DNA of 64,000 nucleotides from a phage. Each line of letters opens with the position of its first letter. The first letter of the stretch is position 1. A model generated the notes under the pieces. It did not search any database. It saw only the letters and a program-made list of their open reading frames with translations, and was not told the DNA's origin. The DNA lies in the NCBI GenBank assembly GCA_022897995.1, contig GCA_022897995.1_4763.1. One strand, given 5' to 3'. The translations under genes were made by a program, and so were the position numbers. Below are positions 3,271 to 49,014 of this stretch, piece by piece.

Positions 3271-3294
3271 ATACCTTCTTTGGAGGGTGAATTT

Positions 3295-3768
3295 ATGTTA
3301 CTGACTGCTAAGAGTGCTAAAGAGTACAAACAAGAACTATTCGAAAAACAGGGGGGCATTTGCCCCCTTTGTCAATTGCCACTTTTTGAGGATATGAGCA
3401 AAAACCATCTTGACCACGACCACGATCTAGATGGGAAAGGGCAAGGCCGCGTAAGGGGATTGCTTCATTCGTGTTGCAACCGCCTAGAAGGATCGTTGAC
3501 CGGAGACTTTAAGCGGTTTGGTGTTGGTGCTTTAGGTGCTGATTTCGTTGTTTGGGCTACAAACTATGTTAATTACATCAAAGGAGACTACACCAACAAT
3601 CATTTACACCCTCAATATGCTGTTGATAAAATAAAACGATTTTCACGCTTGACACGCGCGGAAATGGTCGCTATTATGGACGCAGAAGGTTTCGATTACT
3701 GCGACGCTGATACAAGAGAAGAGATCACGAAGAAGTATAAGAAACAATTTATACAAAGATTAAGATAG
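3295..3768 (+). CDS. 49: recombination endonuclease VII (gp49)
   Basis: 157 aa; CPLC...HLDHDHDL...GLLHSCCN zinc/HNH-like core as in T4 endo VII; GGAGGG upstream. Confidence 0.85.
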   Translation: MLLTAKSAKEYKQELFEKQGGICPLCQLPLFEDMSKNHLDHDHDLDGKGQGRVRGLLHSCCNRLEGSLTGDFKRFGVGALGADFVVWATNYVNYIKGDYTNNHLHPQYAVDKIKRFSRLTRAEMVAIMDAEGFDYCDADTREEITKKYKKQFIQRLR

Positions 3769-3771
3769 TAA

Positions 3772-3807
3772 TTGACAATAAGAAATGGGAGTAGTAAAAT
3801 ACTCCCA
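3772..3807 (+). promoter_or_regulatory. early promoter with GGGAGTA/TACTCCC stem-loop (PeSL)
   Basis: TTGACA 3772-3777, 17-nt spacer, TAAAAT 3795-3800 inside inverted repeat 3787-3807. Confidence 0.6.
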
Positions 3808-3831
3808 TCTAATCAAGAAGGAGAATCAACA

Positions 3832-4104
3832 ATGCGTAAGATGTTTAAAGCTGGTGTTGCCTATGTTTTTAACTCTGAGCAAGCACGTAAAGACTTCTTA
3901 GAGGATGACTACGAAGGATTGAAAGATACCTACGAAGTCATCAAGAATGGATTTACTGTTCTTAAAGTGTCACCTATTGGTTATGTAAGTGAAATCTCGG
4001 TTGATGGGAAAACATATACCGCTAAAGACTTTGATCCGCGTTGGGAATTTATGCTGCTTCCGTGTGACCGCATTCTGTTTCGTGCTGTTCAATTAGTGAA
4101 ATGA
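3832..4104 (+). CDS. paralogue family member (KNGF(K/T)VL domain)
   Basis: Shares VIKNGFTVLKV...DGKTYTAKDF pattern with 4119-5921 ORFs. Confidence 0.5.
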   Translation: MRKMFKAGVAYVFNSEQARKDFLEDDYEGLKDTYEVIKNGFTVLKVSPIGYVSEISVDGKTYTAKDFDPRWEFMLLPCDRILFRAVQLVK

Positions 4105-4118
4105 TAGAGGATTATATT

Positions 4119-4679
4119 ATGGTACAGAAAACGTATAAATTGTATCCGGCTAAGTCTTCAAATGATGCTGTTTTTGAACGAGGTCGTTATTACACTTTCC
4201 GTAATGCTGAGTCCGCAGAGGAATTTGTTAAACGCTATCCACAACATAACAAGTTCCTGTATGGTGTGCTTCACAAGGGCTTTAAAGTTCTGACGGTTAA
4301 TGTTATGGGTAAAGTGTATTTGGTAGAAACTCATGATTATGAGGGCGCGTCAATCATGATTGATGCAAGCGAGCGCAAATACTTTAAACGCATCACTAAA
4401 AAGCAGTTTGAAGAAATGAAACCAGTTAAGAAAGAAGAATCTCTGGAAGATCTGATTAACTTGTTTGGTAAAGTTCGCTCTATCTCCTTTGCGATTGAAG
4501 ATGACATTACCGACAATAAAATCTTTATCAAGAACGCGGAAGACCTGAAAGAGTTCCTTATTGAAAATAGATCTCGGCTGGAAACCTTTCTTGAAAGTGA
4601 AATTATTCGACATGATACCTACGCTAAATTCAGCGCCGAGAAAGTGGAAGAACTGAAAGAGATTAAAAAGTCACTTTAA
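4119..4679 (+). CDS. paralogue family member (GFKVL / ERKYFKRI motifs, helical C-terminus)
   Basis: HKGFKVLTV and SERKYFKRITKKQFEEM match 4743-5921 (KNGFKVLEK, NERKYFKRISKEAYEAM). Confidence 0.55.
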   Translation: MVQKTYKLYPAKSSNDAVFERGRYYTFRNAESAEEFVKRYPQHNKFLYGVLHKGFKVLTVNVMGKVYLVETHDYEGASIMIDASERKYFKRITKKQFEEMKPVKKEESLEDLINLFGKVRSISFAIEDDITDNKIFIKNAEDLKEFLIENRSRLETFLESEIIRHDTYAKFSAEKVEELKEIKKSL

Positions 4680-4682
4680 CGC

Positions 4683-4718
4683 TTGACATGATGAAACGGG
4701 AGTAGTAAGATACTCCCA
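4683..4718 (+). promoter_or_regulatory. early promoter with GGGAGTA/TACTCCC stem-loop (PeSL)
   Basis: TTGACA 4683-4688, 17-nt spacer, TAAGAT 4706-4711; inverted repeat 4698-4718. Confidence 0.6.
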
Positions 4719-4742
4719 TCTAAACAACGAGAGGATTATATT

Positions 4743-5921
4743 ATGGCTAAATTCTTTGAAGGGCATTACTATGCATTCCGTGAAGGCGGTAAAGATGAGT
4801 TTCTAGACTTTTCTCGCTATTCAATTATTCTGACCGATGCTTCGCGCCGTGGTCATATTCGGGTTGCAGAAATTGTCAAAAACGGTTTTAAAGTATTAGA
4901 AAAAGATGACCACGGTCATGTTATTACTATTGAAGCTGGAGATGTAGTTTATTCCGCTAATGATATTGTGGATTATTGGGCTACTATGATTATGCACAAT
5001 GAGCGCAAATACTTTAAACGTATCTCAAAAGAGGCATACGAAGCGATGAACAAGAAAGAGGATGCAATGCCGACTTACTTTGAAAAAGGTAAATGTTATT
5101 CGTTTACCCCGGAAGGTTTGCAAGAATTTAAGCGATTCTGGGGAGATCATGATCCAGAGCACAAAGAAGCCATGAAACTTGTTGATTTTGTCGAATATGG
5201 CTTTTTAGTTGAAGAAGAATTTCACGGATCGGCTACCATGATCACCGCGAAAGGTGAAACTGTTAAGGCGGATCGTTTTTGTGAACAGTGGAATTGCTTG
5301 TTTGACGGTAGCGAATTTGAATACTTCGCAGAAATCACGAATCATCAATTTCGTTCTATGCAAGCAGATGGTCAGCGATTTAAAGTAGGCGAACGCTACA
5401 AGCCAAATCAGCATAATTTGCCTTATTGGTTTAACACTGAAACCGTATCCAGTCATGTTATTGAAATTGTTCAAAAGCTGGAACAGGGATTTAAGGTAAC
5501 TAAAGTAGATTCTTTCGGAAGTGTTGACGCGGTTGAAATTGATGGTGTAGAATATACACCGAAATCTTTCGGGCTTTGCTGGTATCACTTGATCAGCAAT
5601 GATGAACGTTATAACTTTGTTGAACTGCCATCTGAACCGGAAGAAGCACTAGAAGATCATGATCATCTGTCTGAACTGGTTAAACTGTTTGGCGATCTGC
5701 CGGATGGTGTAGGGGTGGCGGTAATGGGTGAAGGTGCTGTTATCCGAAACCTGAAAGACTTTAAAAAGTTCTTGATCGACATGCTGCCTAAACTCGATGA
5801 GAATCTAGATACAGATATTCAGAATCGCAAAGAAATTGTTAAAGAGACTGAAAAAGAGATCGAAGAGATTCGAGCAATTCGCCAGAAGGTGAAAGCAGTA
5901 AAGAAAAAAGTTAGTGCTTGA
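4743..5921 (+). CDS. paralogue family member with internally duplicated domain
   Basis: Two copies of the GFKV..V..DG / ER(K)Y(F) unit (residues ~40-100 and ~240-290) plus coiled-coil tail. Confidence 0.55.
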   Translation: MAKFFEGHYYAFREGGKDEFLDFSRYSIILTDASRRGHIRVAEIVKNGFKVLEKDDHGHVITIEAGDVVYSANDIVDYWATMIMHNERKYFKRISKEAYEAMNKKEDAMPTYFEKGKCYSFTPEGLQEFKRFWGDHDPEHKEAMKLVDFVEYGFLVEEEFHGSATMITAKGETVKADRFCEQWNCLFDGSEFEYFAEITNHQFRSMQADGQRFKVGERYKPNQHNLPYWFNTETVSSHVIEIVQKLEQGFKVTKVDSFGSVDAVEIDGVEYTPKSFGLCWYHLISNDERYNFVELPSEPEEALEDHDHLSELVKLFGDLPDGVGVAVMGEGAVIRNLKDFKKFLIDMLPKLDENLDTDIQNRKEIVKETEKEIEEIRAIRQKVKAVKKKVSA

Positions 5922-5951
5922 CATGCGAAGGGAGTATGCTATAATACTCCC
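5918..5951 (+). promoter_or_regulatory. early promoter with GGGAGTA/TACTCCC stem-loop (PeSL)
   Basis: TTGACA 5918-5923, 16-nt spacer, TATAAT 5940-5945 inside the inverted repeat. Confidence 0.6.
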
Positions 5952-5975
5952 ACTTAACAACGAGAGGATTATATT

Positions 5976-6470
5976 ATGTGGGTACAAGATGTTTGGTATA
6001 CTGTAACTAAAGAAAACCTTGACGCATTCAGCGACCAATCTTGCGCTAATAGCTCAATTGCTGATATTCTTGAAGATGTTTTTGGCGGTGTAGATAAAAT
6101 TCGTTTTAAAGTTGTTGTTAATTCTATGGGGTGTGTAAAAGACCTATATACCGATGATAAAGACCTTGATCTTAAACTTCATCTTCGTATTGAGAATGCA
6201 AGTCTAGGTTATTGGTTTGAAGATAACGAATATGAATACTTCACCCCAGCAATTAAAGTTTTTGCAACTAAACTGGAAGCTGTACTGAATCTACGACCAA
6301 TTAATGTTGACGGTTACATTATCAAAAATATTCAGGAGTGGGATTCATATCTAGATCAGATTATCCGAAATAGTAAGCAGGAAGCCGCTAATAAGAAGCG
6401 ACAAGAGATCAAACAACTGAAAGCTGAACTGGAAGCGGCGGAAAAAGAATTAGCAGAACTGGTAAAATAA
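5976..6470 (+). CDS. hypothetical protein with C-terminal coiled coil (possible family member)
   Basis: 164-aa ORF after promoter cassette; KIRFKVVV...EYEYF resembles the family pattern weakly. Confidence 0.45.
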   Translation: MWVQDVWYTVTKENLDAFSDQSCANSSIADILEDVFGGVDKIRFKVVVNSMGCVKDLYTDDKDLDLKLHLRIENASLGYWFEDNEYEYFTPAIKVFATKLEAVLNLRPINVDGYIIKNIQEWDSYLDQIIRNSKQEAANKKRQEIKQLKAELEAAEKELAELVK

Positions 6471-6480
6471 CTATCAACGA

Positions 6481-6501
6481 GCGGGAGAAATCCCGCTTTT
6501 T
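6481..6501 (+). terminator. stem-loop with U-tract (intrinsic terminator-like)
   Basis: GCGGGA-GAAA-TCCCGC followed by TTTTT. Confidence 0.5.
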
Positions 6502-6514
6502 CATAGGTGATACA

Positions 6515-8377
6515 ATGGAAAAACTAATCAAAGACATTACAGAGATCGCAACGGGTAAAGAAAACGAAGTAAGCAAAGAGAACGCGAACAAAGACGCGCG
6601 AACATTCCCGACACGTCGAGATCTGATTGCTGGTGCTGTGTCTAAACAGATTGCTAAAACCGTGTTACCTGAGCACATCTATAAAGCGCATGTAGACGGT
6701 GACATTCATTATCATGATATGGATTATGCACCCGCTATGCCGTTTACTAACTGCTGTCTTGTTAATCTCAAAGACATGTTAGAGAATGGTTTTAAATTGG
6801 GTAGTGCACAAATCGAAAGTCCGAAATCAATCGGCGTTGCTTGTGCTGTAACCGCTCAAATTATCGCACAGGTGGCAAGTCATCAATATGGCGGGACCAC
6901 AATTGCAAACATCGATCAGGTGTTAGCACCGTATGTTGAGAAAACATATCATAAACACCTTGCCGATGCCGAAACCTACGGAATCAAAGCTGATACTCTC
7001 TATGCACAAGAGAAGACAGAAAAAGAAACGCTAGACGGATATCAGGCGTTGGAATATGAGATCAACACTTTGTTCTCTACCAATGGTCAAACGCCTTTTG
7101 TGACTTTAACATTTGGTATGGGTACTAGCTGGGAAGAAAAACTGATTCAGAAAGCGATCCTGAACGTTCGAACTAAAGGTTTAGGTAAAGATGGTATCAC
7201 TCCGGTGTTTCCTAAGCTGGTGATGTTCTTAGAAGAAGGATTAAACCTTAAACCGGAAGATCCGAACTACGACATTAAGCAACTTGCATTGGAATGTTCT
7301 AGTAAGCGTCTTTACCCTGATTATATCTCTGCGAAGAATAACCGTAGTATCACTGGATCTAGTGTTCCGGTTAGCCCGATGGGTTGTCGTAGCTTCCTGG
7401 GTGTGTGGCATAATGAGAAAGGCGAAGAAGTATTAGACGGACGTAATAACTTGGGTGTTGTGACTCTGAATCTTCCGCGTATTGCTCTTATTGCCGCGCG
7501 TCGTGCTGGTAAAGCGTCTGTAATGCGCAGAATTGAGCTATTCGAACAAGAGCTAGCTAATCGTATGCCTATTTGTTTTGATGCTCTCATGAGTCGCGTA
7601 GACGCTTTAAAAGGAGCTAAAGCCAATGTTGCTCCTGTACTGTATACCGAAGGTGCATTTTTCCGTATTCATCAAAACGATGAAATTTTGGAAGTGCTGA
7701 AAGATGGTCGCGCTAGTATCTCTCTTGGTTATATTGGTTTACATGAGGTATTGAGCGTCCTGTTTGGTGTTCATCCGTTTGATTCGGAAGATGCGCAGCG
7801 ATACGGTAAACATATTCTTAAGATCTTGCGTCATTATACTGAAAAATGGAAGGACGAAACCGGACTTGGGTTTAGTCTTTACGGTACGCCAGCCGAGAGC
7901 CTTTGCTATCGATTTAATCGACTGGACCGAGAGCAATTTGGTATTGTTAAGGGTGCTACCGATAAAGACTGGTACACCAACTCATTTCACCTTGACGTAG
8001 ACCGGAAGGTTACACCGTTTGAGAAAATCGACTTTGAGAAAGATTATCACTGGCTGGCGTCCGGTGGCATGATCTCTTATGTTGAGTTCCCGGACATGAA
8101 AAACAACCTGAAAGGTCTTGAAACTGTAGTAGACTATGCAATGGATAAATTGCACTACTTCGGTGTTAATACCCCTTCTGATGTGTGTCATGTATGCGGA
8201 TCTACTAAGGAAATGAGAGCGACCGAGTTTGGTTTTGTTTGTCCTGATTGCGGCAATGATAATCTGGAAAAAATGAATGTTATCCGTCGCGTTAGTGGAT
8301 ATCTTGGATCTGTTGATCTGCGTCCATTCAACCACGGGAAACATTCCGAGATGGTAAACCGCGTTAAGCACATGTAA
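6515..8377 (+). CDS. nrdD: anaerobic ribonucleoside-triphosphate reductase NrdD
   Basis: 620 aa; class III RNR with C-terminal glycyl-radical RVSGYLG and Cys-rich zinc site; uninterrupted. Confidence 0.95.
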   Translation: MEKLIKDITEIATGKENEVSKENANKDARTFPTRRDLIAGAVSKQIAKTVLPEHIYKAHVDGDIHYHDMDYAPAMPFTNCCLVNLKDMLENGFKLGSAQIESPKSIGVACAVTAQIIAQVASHQYGGTTIANIDQVLAPYVEKTYHKHLADAETYGIKADTLYAQEKTEKETLDGYQALEYEINTLFSTNGQTPFVTLTFGMGTSWEEKLIQKAILNVRTKGLGKDGITPVFPKLVMFLEEGLNLKPEDPNYDIKQLALECSSKRLYPDYISAKNNRSITGSSVPVSPMGCRSFLGVWHNEKGEEVLDGRNNLGVVTLNLPRIALIAARRAGKASVMRRIELFEQELANRMPICFDALMSRVDALKGAKANVAPVLYTEGAFFRIHQNDEILEVLKDGRASISLGYIGLHEVLSVLFGVHPFDSEDAQRYGKHILKILRHYTEKWKDETGLGFSLYGTPAESLCYRFNRLDREQFGIVKGATDKDWYTNSFHLDVDRKVTPFEKIDFEKDYHWLASGGMISYVEFPDMKNNLKGLETVVDYAMDKLHYFGVNTPSDVCHVCGSTKEMRATEFGFVCPDCGNDNLEKMNVIRRVSGYLGSVDLRPFNHGKHSEMVNRVKHM

Positions 8378-8420: not shown

Positions 8421-8448
8421 TTGACAACCTGATTAGCTCATGTATAAT
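8421..8448 (+). promoter_or_regulatory. sigma70-like early promoter
   Basis: TTGACA 8421-8426, 16-nt spacer with TG, TATAAT 8443-8448. Confidence 0.6.
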
Positions 8449-8479
8449 GCTCACATTGAAACAACGAGAGGATAACATT

Positions 8480-9016
8480 ATGTTTTGTGTATTGAATAAA
8501 GAAATTAAAATTCGTAAACTGGAAATTGGTGATGGTGTCGTTGTTAAAATGCACGCCAGCACACTGGCTAGCTTTGGTACAAAAGAAAGTTTCTTTATTA
8601 TGGGAACGGTTGTTAATATCTGCTGGAGTAAAGGCGAAGGCACACAAATCCGTAGCTTTTGTGTCGTTGACGAAGATAATAACCTGTATGTGATTCGCTA
8701 TCAGAATCAATCTGTGTTGGTTTATACCGACAATTCACGAGAACTGTATACGCTGGACTTTGCTAAACTGTGTGATTGTGATAAAAAGATTCAGGCGTAC
8801 CACACAGAAGGCTGTTTTGGTGTTGGCGTCGAAGAGGAAGAGTACATCCCATTGGAAGTTGGGACAGAAATTAAACATAGTGCCACGGATCGTATTTTTA
8901 CGGTTGTCGCTGTTAATGCAACTCAATTTGTAGCACAAGCGCATAATACGGGATTCGTTATCTATGACATTGGTAATGCAAGTTCTCATTTTGATGGCGT
9001 ACAATTTCGTTTATAA
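8480..9016 (+). CDS. hypothetical protein
   Basis: ATG 8480 after GAGAGGATAACATT ribosome-binding context. Confidence 0.5.
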   Translation: MFCVLNKEIKIRKLEIGDGVVVKMHASTLASFGTKESFFIMGTVVNICWSKGEGTQIRSFCVVDEDNNLYVIRYQNQSVLVYTDNSRELYTLDFAKLCDCDKKIQAYHTEGCFGVGVEEEEYIPLEVGTEIKHSATDRIFTVVAVNATQFVAQAHNTGFVIYDIGNASSHFDGVQFRL

Positions 9017-9028
9017 TGTGAGGTGATT

Positions 9029-9559
9029 ATGTCTAAGTTATTGAATCGTAAGCGTAAAGCACAACGACACAAAGAACGATCTAAAAAGATTGCTATTGAA
9101 CTGGTTGAGCGTGAGGATAGCTATTTGTCTACTGGTCGTTTGTATACATTCCATGCATTAATTGATGACAAGCCAGTATTGCATAATCATGATTGCTTGG
9201 CACTGTTTCACGAGATCGAACCAATCCATCGTGAATGGGATGACAACAAAGCAAAAGGCCAATATTTCCTTACTTGTTCGTGTGGCCATGCTGGATGTGC
9301 TGGATATTGGGAACCTGTTACTATCCGTGAGAAAAATGATACTATTCAATGGGTCGCCCGTGCCCGCGATGGTTATGATAAAGGGGTTGATGGTACTGGT
9401 GATAACGTAGTTTACTTTAATCGTGATTGGTATTATATGGCGCGATGTATGATCCTGTTTTATCTTGACTCGATGCCGTATGAATATTTCAGTTTCCAGA
9501 ATGGGACCGAACTTACTGGCAGAGAATGGTCTGAATACATTCGAAAAAATTTAAAATAA
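9029..9559 (+). CDS. hypothetical protein
   Basis: 177-aa ORF, GTGAGGTGA upstream; basic N-terminus, Cys/His cluster CSCGHAGCAGY. Confidence 0.5.
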   Translation: MSKLLNRKRKAQRHKERSKKIAIELVEREDSYLSTGRLYTFHALIDDKPVLHNHDCLALFHEIEPIHREWDDNKAKGQYFLTCSCGHAGCAGYWEPVTIREKNDTIQWVARARDGYDKGVDGTGDNVVYFNRDWYYMARCMILFYLDSMPYEYFSFQNGTELTGREWSEYIRKNLK

Positions 9560-10290: not shown

Positions 10291-10818
10291 ATGGAATGGG
10301 AAGTAGGTAAAATCTACAATATTAAATGCGAAGTGTCGAAAGCTGAACTGACTAAGTTTTCACCATCCATTAACAATGCGATTCTTGATTTGATTGGTGA
10401 TCGTTCGTTTAAGGTAGAAGCACTTGATGCTGATGGTGATGTTAGTAAAATTACCATTATTGGCGAAGAGACCGAGCCGATGACGTTACGAGAATCCCCT
10501 ATTAATTTTCATGGTGTTTGGTTTTGGTCGGGTGAGCGTCGTTTCTTTACCGAAGTTACTATTGAACCTAAGATTCCAGAATCGGAAGAAAAAGAAGAAG
10601 ACCTAACTTTAGAGCGTCTGGGTCTGCTTATGGAAGCCTACGACATTCAGTTGATCGATAAGATGGGGTTACATAATAGCATTGCCAAAATTACTACCCT
10701 AGAAGGTATTAAGAGCGTACTGGATGGTATGCCTAGCCGGATCGGTGCTATCCGCGAATACAAGCAAACTCGCGACCGTATGATCCAATTAGAATCACGT
10801 ATCAAAAATGAGAGATAA
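10291..10818 (+). CDS. member of tandem paralogue array (MEWEVGKIY... type)
   Basis: WE.GK.Y N-terminus, IGD..FKV, ERRFFTEV, helical C-terminus. Confidence 0.55.
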   Translation: MEWEVGKIYNIKCEVSKAELTKFSPSINNAILDLIGDRSFKVEALDADGDVSKITIIGEETEPMTLRESPINFHGVWFWSGERRFFTEVTIEPKIPESEEKEEDLTLERLGLLMEAYDIQLIDKMGLHNSIAKITTLEGIKSVLDGMPSRIGAIREYKQTRDRMIQLESRIKNER

Positions 10819-10822
10819 TATT

Positions 10823-11287
10823 ATGAAATGGGAAGCTGGTAAGACCTATGCGTGGAAAGATGTAAAAGATGCAAACCAATTTTTTAAATGGTATGATGTT
10901 GATTATTTGAAATATCTGAGATTACCGTTTAAAGTTGCGTCGGTTGATGCGAAAAAAGGATACGTGCGGTCTGTATATCTTCATGATGGAACTTATATGA
11001 GTTCAACCGATGTAGGTCTATCTTGTTGGTTTCTGGATCATGACCGTAGCAGATTTGAAGAAATTATTATTCCAGAAGAATCTAAACTGATGGACCTTCT
11101 CAAGTTGGCGATGGATAATTATAAAATTCGCTTTGAATGCAAATCACATGCGGCTATCGGTGCTAACGCCTTGCGTCATATCTCCAGTTTTGAAGAGTTG
11201 AAAGATTTTCTTGACAAAATGCCGGAAAGGGTGCAAGCTATACAGGAAGCAGAGAAAGCATTAAACGAACTTGATAAAATCGGTTAA
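10823..11287 (+). CDS. member of tandem paralogue array
   Basis: MKWEAGKTYAWKD; same architecture as neighbours. Confidence 0.55.
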   Translation: MKWEAGKTYAWKDVKDANQFFKWYDVDYLKYLRLPFKVASVDAKKGYVRSVYLHDGTYMSSTDVGLSCWFLDHDRSRFEEIIIPEESKLMDLLKLAMDNYKIRFECKSHAAIGANALRHISSFEELKDFLDKMPERVQAIQEAEKALNELDKIG

Positions 11288-11299
11288 GGGGAATATATT

Positions 11300-11848
11300 A
11301 TGAAATGGGAAATTGGTAAAACTTACACTTGGAAAGATGAAAACGCTAAAACTGAGTTTATTACTAACGTAGCAGGTGATCTTTCTCCACTTAACAGCGA
11401 TATTAGTGCAGCTATTGGTGACAAGCCATTTACCATCATCGAGATCGAGGGTAATGGTTGGATTGATGCAATAGAGCTAGACGGTGTTTATCATACGGCG
11501 AAAACGGCTACAGGAAAAGACATTTGGACGTCAACATATTTGTTTAGTCCATTTGATAGAAAATATTTTCGTGAAGTTGAAACAGTGAAAGAACCAGAAG
11601 AAAAGGTGAACGATGATTCTAAGATCGTTGGACAGTTGAAACGTCTGTTTAGTAGTCGTTATGGCCTGACGATGGTTAAATTTGGCGAAGCAAATGAAGG
11701 TAAAACCTTTGAACGTTTCGATGATTTTATTGCAGCACTTGACAAGATGGACGAAATCATGCAAGATCGCCAGAAGATTAAAGATCTTCAAAAAGACATT
11801 AAACGTCGTGAAGTTGAATTTTTGATCGGTAAAGAGCGAGGTTGGTAA
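11300..11848 (+). CDS. member of tandem paralogue array
   Basis: MKWEIGKTYTWKD, IGDKPFTIIEIEG...DGVYH, DRKYFREVE. Confidence 0.55.
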   Translation: MKWEIGKTYTWKDENAKTEFITNVAGDLSPLNSDISAAIGDKPFTIIEIEGNGWIDAIELDGVYHTAKTATGKDIWTSTYLFSPFDRKYFREVETVKEPEEKVNDDSKIVGQLKRLFSSRYGLTMVKFGEANEGKTFERFDDFIAALDKMDEIMQDRQKIKDLQKDIKRREVEFLIGKERGW

Positions 11849-11849
11849 T

Positions 11850-12332
11850 ATGTTTGTTGTTGGTATGACCTATCAGTGGAAAGATTATAAAACAAGAGAA
11901 GATTTTGCAAACTCTAGCGTTGCAAATGATGCAATAGCAGAGTTTATCGGCGACCGTCCATTTAAAGTTATTGCGTTTGATCACCATGAACCAGATATCG
12001 ATTATGTTTCTGTGATTGAAATTGATGGCACGGTATACCCCTGTCGCAATGTTGATGATGTACGGGAATACGCGCACAACTGGTTTTTGCAATCAGAAGA
12101 ACGTTATTTTAAAGTGGTATCGGCAGAACTGACTACTGATGCAATGTTGGAACAATTTTTCAACAACTACGAAGTTTCTGTACGTCGATATGGTGAAGAG
12201 GAAGTATTTAAAATTGATGACTATAATCAGTTTAAACGAGTATTCGCCACTAAGATCCAACGTGATATTGAACGCGAGAAGCGCATCAAGGAACTGGAAG
12301 AAGAACTTGAAAGATTAAAGGCCGAGAAATGA
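11850..12332 (+). CDS. member of tandem paralogue array
   Basis: MTYQWKDYK, IGDRPFKVIAFD, EERYFKVV, coiled-coil C-terminus. Confidence 0.55.
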   Translation: MFVVGMTYQWKDYKTREDFANSSVANDAIAEFIGDRPFKVIAFDHHEPDIDYVSVIEIDGTVYPCRNVDDVREYAHNWFLQSEERYFKVVSAELTTDAMLEQFFNNYEVSVRRYGEEEVFKIDDYNQFKRVFATKIQRDIEREKRIKELEEELERLKAEK

Positions 12333-30555: not shown

Positions 30556-31191
30556 ATGATCGCTAATGCTTTACCGCCAAAATGGATCGTAAGTCGCTTT
30601 TATACTCTCAAGGAAGGTAACGCACCTGATGGTCGTCCGATCCGAGATCTGTTTCTGGAGATGACTACAGCCGAAGCACAGTTTTATAATGATCTGACAG
30701 ACGATAAGCCATTTCTCGTAAATTCGGTGGACCTCGATGGCAATGTCACATCAATCATCACACATGGTGGGGGAGTGAAAAATATTACTTCTCTGCGTGA
30801 TCACGGTTGGGAAATTGCTTGTGTATTTCCTGCGGATGTACGCGGATTCTTTGATGAGGTATCTGATATTAAAGTAAATGCACTAGAACCATATAACGAG
30901 AACCCACCCCTGAAAGAAGAAAAAGAGTTGACACCGGAAGATGTAGGTAGTACACTACACCCAGACCTATTTAAGAAGATTAGCGGTTTATGGACTGTTA
31001 CCCTGTATCCAACCGCATTAGGTCTAGAATTGGGTATGCCAACTTATTCTGATATTGATAACTGGAATAAGAGCATTGATAAAGATGTTGAAAAACAGCG
31101 AAATAATGCTAAAATGCAACTTAAAGAGAAACGCAAAGATCTTGAACGACAACTGAAAGAAACAAAACATTTGCTTTCTACATTCGCTTGA
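30556..31191 (+). CDS. hypothetical protein
   Basis: 211-aa ORF; basic coiled-coil C-terminus. Confidence 0.45.
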   Translation: MIANALPPKWIVSRFYTLKEGNAPDGRPIRDLFLEMTTAEAQFYNDLTDDKPFLVNSVDLDGNVTSIITHGGGVKNITSLRDHGWEIACVFPADVRGFFDEVSDIKVNALEPYNENPPLKEEKELTPEDVGSTLHPDLFKKISGLWTVTLYPTALGLELGMPTYSDIDNWNKSIDKDVEKQRNNAKMQLKEKRKDLERQLKETKHLLSTFA

Positions 31192-37537: not shown

Positions 37538-37710
37538 CTAATGAAGCTAGAAGAACGAAGGGTTTAGATACGCGGTGTAAGCCAAAAATGACAAACGAAC
37601 AGTTACAGGATTTTTTGGCTGTAGCTCTTAATTCGTCAAAAAAATCTCGTGACTACCAAGCTGAATGTATCAATAAAATCCCAGAACATTCCACTAAGCG
37701 AGGGTTTTGA
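37534..37710 (+). CDS. small hypothetical protein (58 aa)
   Basis: Ends ...AECINKIPEHSTKRGF; 3' end is copy 2 of the direct repeat. Confidence 0.3.
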   Translation: MANEARRTKGLDTRCKPKMTNEQLQDFLAVALNSSKKSRDYQAECINKIPEHSTKRGF

Positions 37711-37716
37711 TATGGT
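37658..37716 (+). repeat. direct repeat copy 2
   Basis: CAAGCTGAATGTATCAATAAAATC...CATTCCACTAAGCGAGGGTTTTGATATGG. Confidence 0.7.
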
Positions 37717-37954
37717 TGTTATTAATAATGTGGCTAATGTAATACATCTACAATCAATTGTCGCGTGGAACCGTCAAAAGATTCATTGTGACTATGCACA
37801 ACATGTAATGAATTTTAACAACAAAGTACGCGCATACATGGCAACGGAACGACTGTTAACCGATAATTACGGTAACGGGATTATTGATTGTAGCGGTTTC
37901 ATTCTGGATAAAAACGATCTGGAGTTGTTCCGGCATATCGCGGAGGATATTTAA
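37712..37954 (+). CDS. hypothetical protein
   Basis: ATG 37712 immediately after repeat copy 2. Confidence 0.4.
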   Translation: MVVINNVANVIHLQSIVAWNRQKIHCDYAQHVMNFNNKVRAYMATERLLTDNYGNGIIDCSGFILDKNDLELFRHIAEDI

Positions 37955-48978: not shown

Positions 48979-49014
48979 TTGACACCGGATTATGGGAGTA
49001 GTAAGATACTCCCA
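48979..49014 (+). promoter_or_regulatory. early promoter with GGGAGTA/TACTCCC stem-loop (PeSL)
   Basis: TTGACA 48979-48984, 17-nt spacer, TAAGAT 49002-49007; hairpin identical to 4698-4718. Confidence 0.6.

Follow-up and report, generated by a model that had tools for sequence, protein, structure and literature searches.

An expanded GoF/Frd.2-type barrel family in tandem gene arrays of a Krischvirus, with a putative early role in mRNA fate

Background

What are the four consecutive open reading frames (ORFs) that separate gene 49, encoding endonuclease VII (3280-3768), from nrdD (6515-8377) in the phage contig GCA_022897995.1_4763.1 (NCBI GenBank assembly GCA_022897995.1)? We analysed a stretch of 64,000 nucleotides (nt) from this contig, hereafter called the window, and named the four ORFs gene A (3832-4104, 90 amino acids, aa), gene B (4119-4679, 186 aa), gene C (4743-5921, 392 aa) and gene D (5976-6470, 164 aa), all of them on the plus strand. 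A preliminary description, made without database searches, had proposed that the first three and possibly the fourth are paralogues sharing an N-terminal unit, and had found no T4 protein of known name to which they could be connected.

By profile similarity, A to D are members of the GoF/Frd.2(/MotB.1) family of early proteins of T4-like phages. The overall explanation that we favour, with moderate confidence, is that the window carries an expanded GoF/Frd.2 family in recombining arrays, whose members are, as we infer, early modulators of mRNA fate. The family itself is already known, since it has been named and was recently published, and parts of it are annotated (frd.2, goF). What is new here is the membership of A and D and of five further genes of the window (E to H, and I), the triple-barrel protein C, the gain and loss of a barrel in G, and the observation that the goF suppressor changes lead toward the family consensus.

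Paralogous genes between gene 49 and nrdD

The relationship among the genes was measured by a leave-one-out comparison, in which a profile was generated from the other units (about 95 residues each) and the score of the real unit was set against the best of 2000 shuffles. A reached 48.5 bits, where its best shuffle gave 9.0, and B 50.0 against 13.2, and the three units found in C (C1, C2 and C3) gave 41.2 against 11.8, 25.3 against 9.1 and 33.6 against 7.7. The unit of D was the weakest yet still significant (17.4 bits against 9.7, E-value 4.5e-4), and D is for this reason counted as a member. The paralogy proposed in the preliminary description was therefore borne out for all four ORFs at the coordinates it gave, and the check by alignment statistics that it had recommended found the shared motifs highly significant. 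The motifs quoted there are indeed present in A (KNGFTVLKV), in B (HKGFKVLTV and SERKYFKRITKKQFEEM) and in C (KNGFKVLEK and NERKYFKRISKEAYEAM), and the same three proteins were linked at 26-41 bits by all-against-all blastp.

Pairwise identities between units are merely 16-34%, which would suit the view that the shared motifs reflect chance or compositional similarity among unrelated ORFan genes. Every unit nevertheless scored far above all of its 2000 shuffles, independent PHROG profiles gave the same links and the predicted fold repeats from unit to unit. We consider this explanation already refuted, with practically no probability left to it.

The window belongs to a Krischvirus, an RB49/JSE-like coliphage. 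A megablast search with positions 3280-6520 returned 59 phage records, RB49-like coliphages of this genus throughout, with JSE and RB49 as the best matches (96.1-96.6% identity); A to D correspond to the annotated RB49 genes RB49p060 to RB49p057. Compared with RB49, the ratio of nonsynonymous to synonymous substitution rates (dN/dS) was 0.15 for A, 0.175 for C and 0.25 for D, the first-array genes that align without gaps. For F, G and I it was 0.05-0.30, which is also the range of all six gap-free family genes, whereas the core genes 49, nrdD and 41 gave 0.00-0.03. These values indicate that the family consists of true coding genes that evolve faster than the core genes. As judged from their sequences, A, B, C and D are thus real genes and true paralogues, with A, C and D under purifying selection.

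The four proteins differ in architecture. A is a single barrel of the GoF/Frd.2 type without a tail, B comprises a barrel (aa ~19-100), a linker and a helical tail, D has a divergent barrel and a coiled-coil tail, and C consists of three barrels, an acidic linker and a long helical tail. The preliminary description had counted the unit twice in C. The internal repeat stands, and the count is three by blastp, by hmmsearch (three domains) and in the AlphaFold2 model (three repeats); the match of C to the PHROG profile phrog_622 likewise comprises three stretches. C1 (4743-5066, aa 1-108) is nearest to B, at 34-40% identity, and B aligns to C residues 2-124. C2 (5067-5372, aa 109-210) has predicted strands from 118-121 to 195-198 and is matched by B at C 113-207. 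C3 (5373-5663, aa 211-307), with strands from 218-221 to 292-295, is matched by A at C 223-298 and by B at C 246-359. The tail of C (5664-5921) is predicted to form a helix, a beta-hairpin and a helix of 55 residues, and is probably a coiled coil. Orthologues of C fall into only 8 clusters (at 90% identity), each of 391-392 aa and at least 83% identical.

The helical tail that had been described after each unit is present in B, C and D and absent from A. Homology between tails is clear for B and C (z 8.5) and weaker for the other pairs. When a common tail was tested by leave-one-out scoring, C, E, F and H alone gave significant support, and in pairwise comparison only B-C and E-F did so.

Relationship to the GoF and Frd.2 proteins of T4

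The connection to named T4 proteins, which the preliminary description had been unable to make, emerged from two sides. First, the four proteins match phrog_622 (C 3e-17, A 2e-6, B 9e-6, D 9e-3), the group in which T4 GoF (4.6e-38) and T4 Frd.2 (4.1e-46) are found. Second, a profile generated from the window units only detects T4 GoF at an E-value of 3.7e-11, Frd.2 at 1e-4 and MotB.1 at 0.03; MotB.1 reaches 0.004 once GoF and Frd.2 join the profile. Each protein also has a closer PHROG assignment: A belongs to phrog_16115 (3.6e-62), B and C are placed in phrog_8944, labelled 'goF mRNA metabolism modulator' (C at 1.5e-209), and D is in phrog_15067 (7e-109) with a further match to phrog_3710 (6e-5), which T4 GoF matches as well (8e-12). 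Existing annotation agrees in part: the RB49 GenBank record AY343333 labels the 392-aa gene frd.2, and in RefSeq both B and C are named 'goF mRNA metabolism modulator'.

The GoF/Frd.2/MotB.1 family has been described as having an 'LSm-like fold', with a domain made of a bent five-stranded antiparallel sheet, a flexible linker and a variable C-terminal domain (Kim et al. 2025, PMC12152347). RB49 and multi-barrel forms are not mentioned by these authors, and a confident multimer model was not obtained in their study. The preliminary description had named a clear hit to a well-characterised family as an outcome that would speak against its account. Half of such an outcome was found: the family has a name and a publication (PMC12152347), and its function has not been established.

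Pfam gave no help in the assignment. PF03197 (FRD2, gathering threshold 29 bits), in which T4 Frd.2 scores 133 bits, was not matched by A to D even at E-values up to 1, and scans of all nine family proteins of the window produced nothing significant; weak matches to RecT, LYR and DUF entries fell below threshold and were disregarded. An exhaustive search of 1.84 billion proteins yielded 14 matches at E-values up to 1e-3, including two large proteins of 2502 and 846 aa. The larger one, with 11 matched stretches, is a candidate only, and the smaller one was disregarded as visibly repetitive. Word-indexed homologue searches returned mostly close orthologues of GoF or B.

The position of the cluster raises a different possibility, namely that A to D are the positional equivalents of pin, the Lon protease inhibitor gene that neighbours gene 49 in T4. 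In T4, though, pin flanks gene 49 at its opposite end, and gene 49 adjoins nrdD with no gene in between; this direct contact marks A to D as an insertion specific to the RB49-like lineage. Moreover, A to D do not match Pfam PF10465 (Inhibitor_I24), PinA belongs to an unrelated PHROG and the family profile misses PinA at E-values below 1. A relationship to PinA is thus effectively refuted at the sequence level, and we regard the positional explanation as very improbable.

Predicted structure of the barrel unit

Structure prediction, also among the checks recommended for the unit of about 90 aa, gave a five-stranded barrel. In the AlphaFold2 model of B (28-row alignment), residues 20-100 have a predicted local distance difference test score (pLDDT) above 90 and form strands at 24-27, 55-60, 66-70, 77-81 and 89-92. 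Two helices lie between the first and second strands, and a linker with little order leads on to tail helices at 109-119 and 140-185. The model of C (19 rows) contains three such barrels separated by low-confidence linkers, and then a helix, a hairpin and a helix at 337-391. Its predicted template-modelling score (pTM) is 0.40, and the relative positions of the domains are therefore undefined in the model. In B, C and D a linker of low pLDDT leads into the tail that A lacks. Taken together, the models show the unit as a predicted SH3/FeoA-like five-stranded beta-barrel of about 95 residues with two helices inserted after strand 1. It corresponds to the fold published as 'LSm-like', including the bent five-stranded antiparallel sheet; we prefer the SH3/FeoA-like description and regard 'LSm-like' as a loose label. 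In every protein but A, an acidic flexible linker joins the barrel to the helical tail, which is probably a dimerising coiled coil.

A Foldseek comparison with predicted viral structures (BFVD) returned 48 matches at E-values up to 1e-3, nearly all of them proteins of T4-like phages, whose hosts are Escherichia, Aeromonas, Acinetobacter, Serratia, Edwardsiella, Pectobacterium and Proteus. The named matches are all uncharacterised except for a GoF and an RB49-type Dc2. A sequence search of the PDB with the family profile found no solved relative (best E-value 0.11).

Members elsewhere in the window and in RB49

The limits of the cluster, given as 3832-6470 in the preliminary description, hold for the first array and not for the family, which comprises at least nine genes with 11 barrels in the window. 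These are arranged as two tandem arrays flanking the nrdD-nrdG module of anaerobic ribonucleotide reductase and one gene after gene 41. The second array (10291-12332), between nrdG and nrdH, consists of E (10291-10818), F (10823-11287), G (11300-11848; 182 aa, one barrel) and H (11850-12332), with proteins of 154-182 aa. Gene I (30556-31191, 211 aa), known in RB49 as 'Dc2', is the next gene downstream of the gene 41 helicase. All five are on the plus strand. A profile of the six first-array units detects E to H at E-values of 5e-9 to 3e-5, and I more weakly. E to H all match phrog_5347 and phrog_622 and have leave-one-out scores of 43-56 bits; I has its own group, phrog_16187, with a weak match to phrog_5347, and scores 26.1 bits against 7.7 for the best shuffle.

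The local gene order starts with dam (2168-2980), followed by nrdC, gene 49, the first array and nrdD. Two ORFs between nrdD and nrdG (8447-9016 and 9023-9559) are outside the barrel family; they have no Pfam match and fall only in PHROGs of unknown function (14838 and 8242). A scan of RB49 covering about 85% of the genome (90-115 kb excluded) recovered these nine genes without any other convincing candidate, with no goF next to gene 39 and no member beside frd. Two borderline candidates were not accepted: window positions 37625-37951 (E-value 0.03, with one profile only) and RB49p125 (0.04).

Gain and loss of barrels

Gene G provides the clearest view of how the arrays change. In RB49, G (L006, 30775-31599) encodes 274 aa with two barrels, against one barrel in the window. 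The two forms differ by an indel of 308 nt with flanks 96.7% identical, and this is bounded by direct repeats of 47 nt (91%) and 28 nt (89%), which correspond to the start and end motifs of the barrel. The second barrel of G is kept in 57 of the 59 Krischvirus records, so the window phage most likely lost it; a one-piece alignment like that of the window was seen only for phage ELT4.

The history of C appears more remote. The barrels C1 to C3 are 19-28% identical among themselves, no closer than to other paralogues, and C is therefore old or the product of a fusion. Between its endonuclease VII and nrdD genes, a divergent T4-like metagenomic relative (L009; ERZ27235521 k119_34593, 6001-8047) has family genes as well, three in number (196, 204 and 189 aa) and each with a single barrel; one-to-one orthology between these genes and C1 to C3 was not resolved. 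A run of 20 nt is identical between B (4371-4390) and C1 (5001-5020), with 78% identity over 50 nt, and may be a patch of gene conversion.

We propose that the arrays and the multi-barrel proteins arise and are remodelled when barrels are duplicated in tandem and recombine unequally through the conserved motifs at their starts and ends. On the comparison of sequences, this mechanism is shown for gene G, and we infer it for C. Together with shuffling mediated by the promoter cassettes described below, which would act as portable promoters, these processes account for the anatomy of the arrays.

Promoters and terminator of the first array

Three cassettes with a common layout lie directly upstream of ORFs of the first array: a -35 box TTGACA, a hairpin of 7-9 bp (GGGAGTA...TACTCCC) across the -10 box and a Shine-Dalgarno sequence. 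A search for this motif gave 3 matches against 0 expected. The cassette serving A, and with it B, lies at 3772-3831, with its -35 box at 3772-3777, the hairpin at 3785-3808 (-13.8 kcal/mol, z -3.4), the -10 box TAAAAT at 3795-3800 and then a ribosome-binding site; it scored 11 of 12 in a promoter scan and contains the repeat families D1 and D4. That of C, at 4683-4742, has the -35 box at 4683-4688, the hairpin at 4698-4717 and the -10 box TAAGAT at 4706-4711. In the cassette of D (5918-5975) the -35 box overlaps the stop codon of C, the hairpin spans 5930-5951 and the -10 box TATAAT is at 5940-5945 with an upstream TG; it scored 12 of 12. All three are on the plus strand.

The preliminary description had given every gene its own promoter cassette, which is true of A, C and D, whose cassettes are of a published kind, and not of B. 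The latter begins 14 nt past A and carries only the common ribosome-binding site GAGGATTATATTATG. An in-frame ATG at 4101, overlapping the stop codon of A (ATGA), lies further upstream, and some database records start B there (192 aa); given the GAGGATTATATTATG context that B shares, 4119 is the more likely start.

The cassettes are promoter-early stem-loop (PeSL) elements as defined in RB49 and phi1, in which a sigma-70 promoter is combined with a Shine-Dalgarno sequence and with a hairpin that overlaps the -10 box (Arbiol et al. 2010, PMC2839356), and promoter activity has been demonstrated for other PeSLs (PMC2839356). A, C and D thus carry predicted sigma-70 promoters of the early type, and early expression would be expected. 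The GGGAGTA...TACTCC hairpin of the cassettes serving A and C recurs in another PeSL cassette, at 48979-49012. The first array is closed by a hairpin with a U-run at 6479-6501 on the plus strand, between D and nrdD, which resembles an intrinsic terminator (-17.0 kcal/mol, z -5.0); nrdD would therefore need read-through or another promoter.

Possible function of the family

The only phenotypes reported for the family concern the level of mRNA. The classical goF suppressor changes are D25Y and G84R, and GoF(D25Y), not wild-type GoF, gives a reporter RNA with the gene 41 leader a longer half-life, a post-transcriptional effect (PMC12152347). A cell contains about 20,000 copies of GoF, both GoF and MotB.1 run as dimers, and each of the three genes (goF, frd.2, motB.1) is dispensable in the laboratory (PMC12152347). 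In a CRISPRi-ART screen of T4, Frd.2 was the sole gene of unknown function to be rated important for fitness (PMC11879866). In the window, gene I adjoins gene 41, whose mRNA is affected by T4 GoF(D25Y), an adjacency that may be a coincidence.

We located the two suppressor positions in all units with hmmalign. Asp25 of GoF lies three residues past the invariant Phe, and its equivalent is Phe in C1, C2 and E, Trp in F and Tyr in the second barrel of RB49 G. Gly84 is the x of the E-R-x-Y-F motif, which is Lys in B, C1 and G and Arg in E and H; Lys or Arg occupies this position in 31 of 37 other family matches, many of which are close orthologues of B. An aromatic residue at 25 and Lys or Arg at 84 are thus common in the window family, and both D25Y and G84R shift GoF toward the family consensus. 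The two features occur together in C1, E and the second barrel of RB49 G. This suggests that some Krischvirus barrels may natively hold the activity that GoF gains by mutation. Among 111 clusters of natural GoF orthologues plus T4 GoF, position 25 is Asp in 99, Tyr in 5 and Asn in 5, and position 84 is Glu in 65, Gly in 41 and Arg in 2, so that the laboratory alleles Tyr25 and Arg84 also occur in nature.

In the explanation that we favour, the family proteins would be made early and in abundance, each would be dispensable by itself, and they would modulate the fate of mRNA after its transcription. The barrels would bind RNA directly or, more likely given their acidic surfaces, a host protein of RNA metabolism; the variable surfaces would assign a different target to each paralogue, and avidity would be raised by the helical tail and, in C, by the triple barrel. 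Several points weigh against this. No function has been established for any wild-type member of the GoF family, and wild-type GoF had no effect on RNA (PMC12152347). Seven of the 11 window barrels are acidic (isoelectric point 4.4-4.8; that of B is basic, 9.3), which argues against direct binding of RNA. A relationship between the tails and the C-terminal regions of T4 GoF and Frd.2 was undetected, the alignments used for structure prediction were shallow (19-28 rows) with pTM values of just 0.40-0.52, and an internal duplication of C is indistinguishable from a gene fusion because its barrels resemble each other only as much as they resemble other paralogues.

In a rival view, the barrels would be protein-binding modules of the SH3/Tudor kind and the arrays a diversifying set of early decoys or inhibitors. 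Their targets would be proteins of the host, for instance defence systems or factors that bind nucleic acids, and the family would play no direct part in mRNA metabolism. Besides the acidity of most barrels and the inactivity of wild-type GoF on RNA, the location of the genes in hyperplastic, PeSL-rich regions, the rapid change in copy number with whole barrels gained and lost, and a dN/dS above that of core genes are in line with this idea. So are the restriction of conservation to core residues, with variable surfaces, and the structural neighbours, which are Tudor, SH3 and Mib domains that bind peptides or proteins. Nevertheless, a GoF pull-down from uninfected E. coli gave essentially GoF alone (PMC12152347), and the sole phenotype of the family lies at the level of mRNA. 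We consider this a serious rival, although an unlikely one.

In the original 'antiterminator' idea for goF/comC-alpha, RNA polymerase or Rho would be the target of the barrels, after the fashion of CarD, the Mfd RID, the UvrD Tudor domain or NusG KOW, and the proteins would act on transcription elongation or termination. We hold this idea to be improbable.

A bolder version of post-transcriptional modulation follows from the suppressor positions. The Krischvirus paralogues would be natively active forms of the GoF D25Y/G84R activity, the barrels C1, E and the second one of RB49 G would protect mRNA, and C, with six barrels per dimer, would be a multivalent RNA chaperone or sponge resembling the Hfq hexamer early in infection. 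As a whole this proposal is rather unlikely.

GoF-type proteins are conserved in T4-like phages and, in the case of GoF, abundant, and the 11-12 diverged barrels of this Krischvirus, arranged singly, in twos or in threes, make up a natural panel. Together with the relation of the suppressor changes to the consensus, this panel opens cheap and concrete ways to probe the function of the family. The locus also lets one follow, to the nucleotide, the gain and loss of whole domains in phage accessory proteins through recombination between short conserved motifs.

Comparison with known systems

In layout, the cassettes at 3772, 4683 and 5918 match the published PeSLs without any difference, and they are ordinary members of that class. 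As to the fold, FeoA and the SH3-like barrels (the C-terminal domains of DtxR and IdeR, Tudor and KOW) are among the closest known systems. Hfq and the Sm/LSm proteins have the small bent five-stranded sheet in common with the window barrels, and a link to RNA was proposed by Kim et al. 2025 (PMC12152347); the window units do not show the Sm/LSm arrangement of an N-terminal helix followed by five strands with Sm1 and Sm2 motifs.

Among the T4 proteins, MotB.1 belongs to the same structural family according to Kim et al. 2025 and forms the most distant branch, with a marginal sequence link here (E-values 0.004-0.03). T4 Frd.2 (PF03197 FRD2, 128 aa) has a homologous barrel, as seen from its profile match (1e-4) and its place in phrog_622, and the 392-aa gene of RB49 was named after it; it differs in having a single barrel and in lying beside frd and gene 32, a locus at which RB49 has no family member. 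T4 GoF (ComC-alpha, 141 aa), an early and dispensable protein, likewise has one barrel only, and its C-terminal region is short and without detectable kinship to the window tails. Its gene sits near gene 39, where RB49 has none, and it has Asp25 and Gly or Glu84 at positions that are mostly aromatic and basic, respectively, in the window family. In its homologous N-terminal barrel, and in the succession of barrel, acidic linker and C-terminal region, GoF is nevertheless built like the window family.

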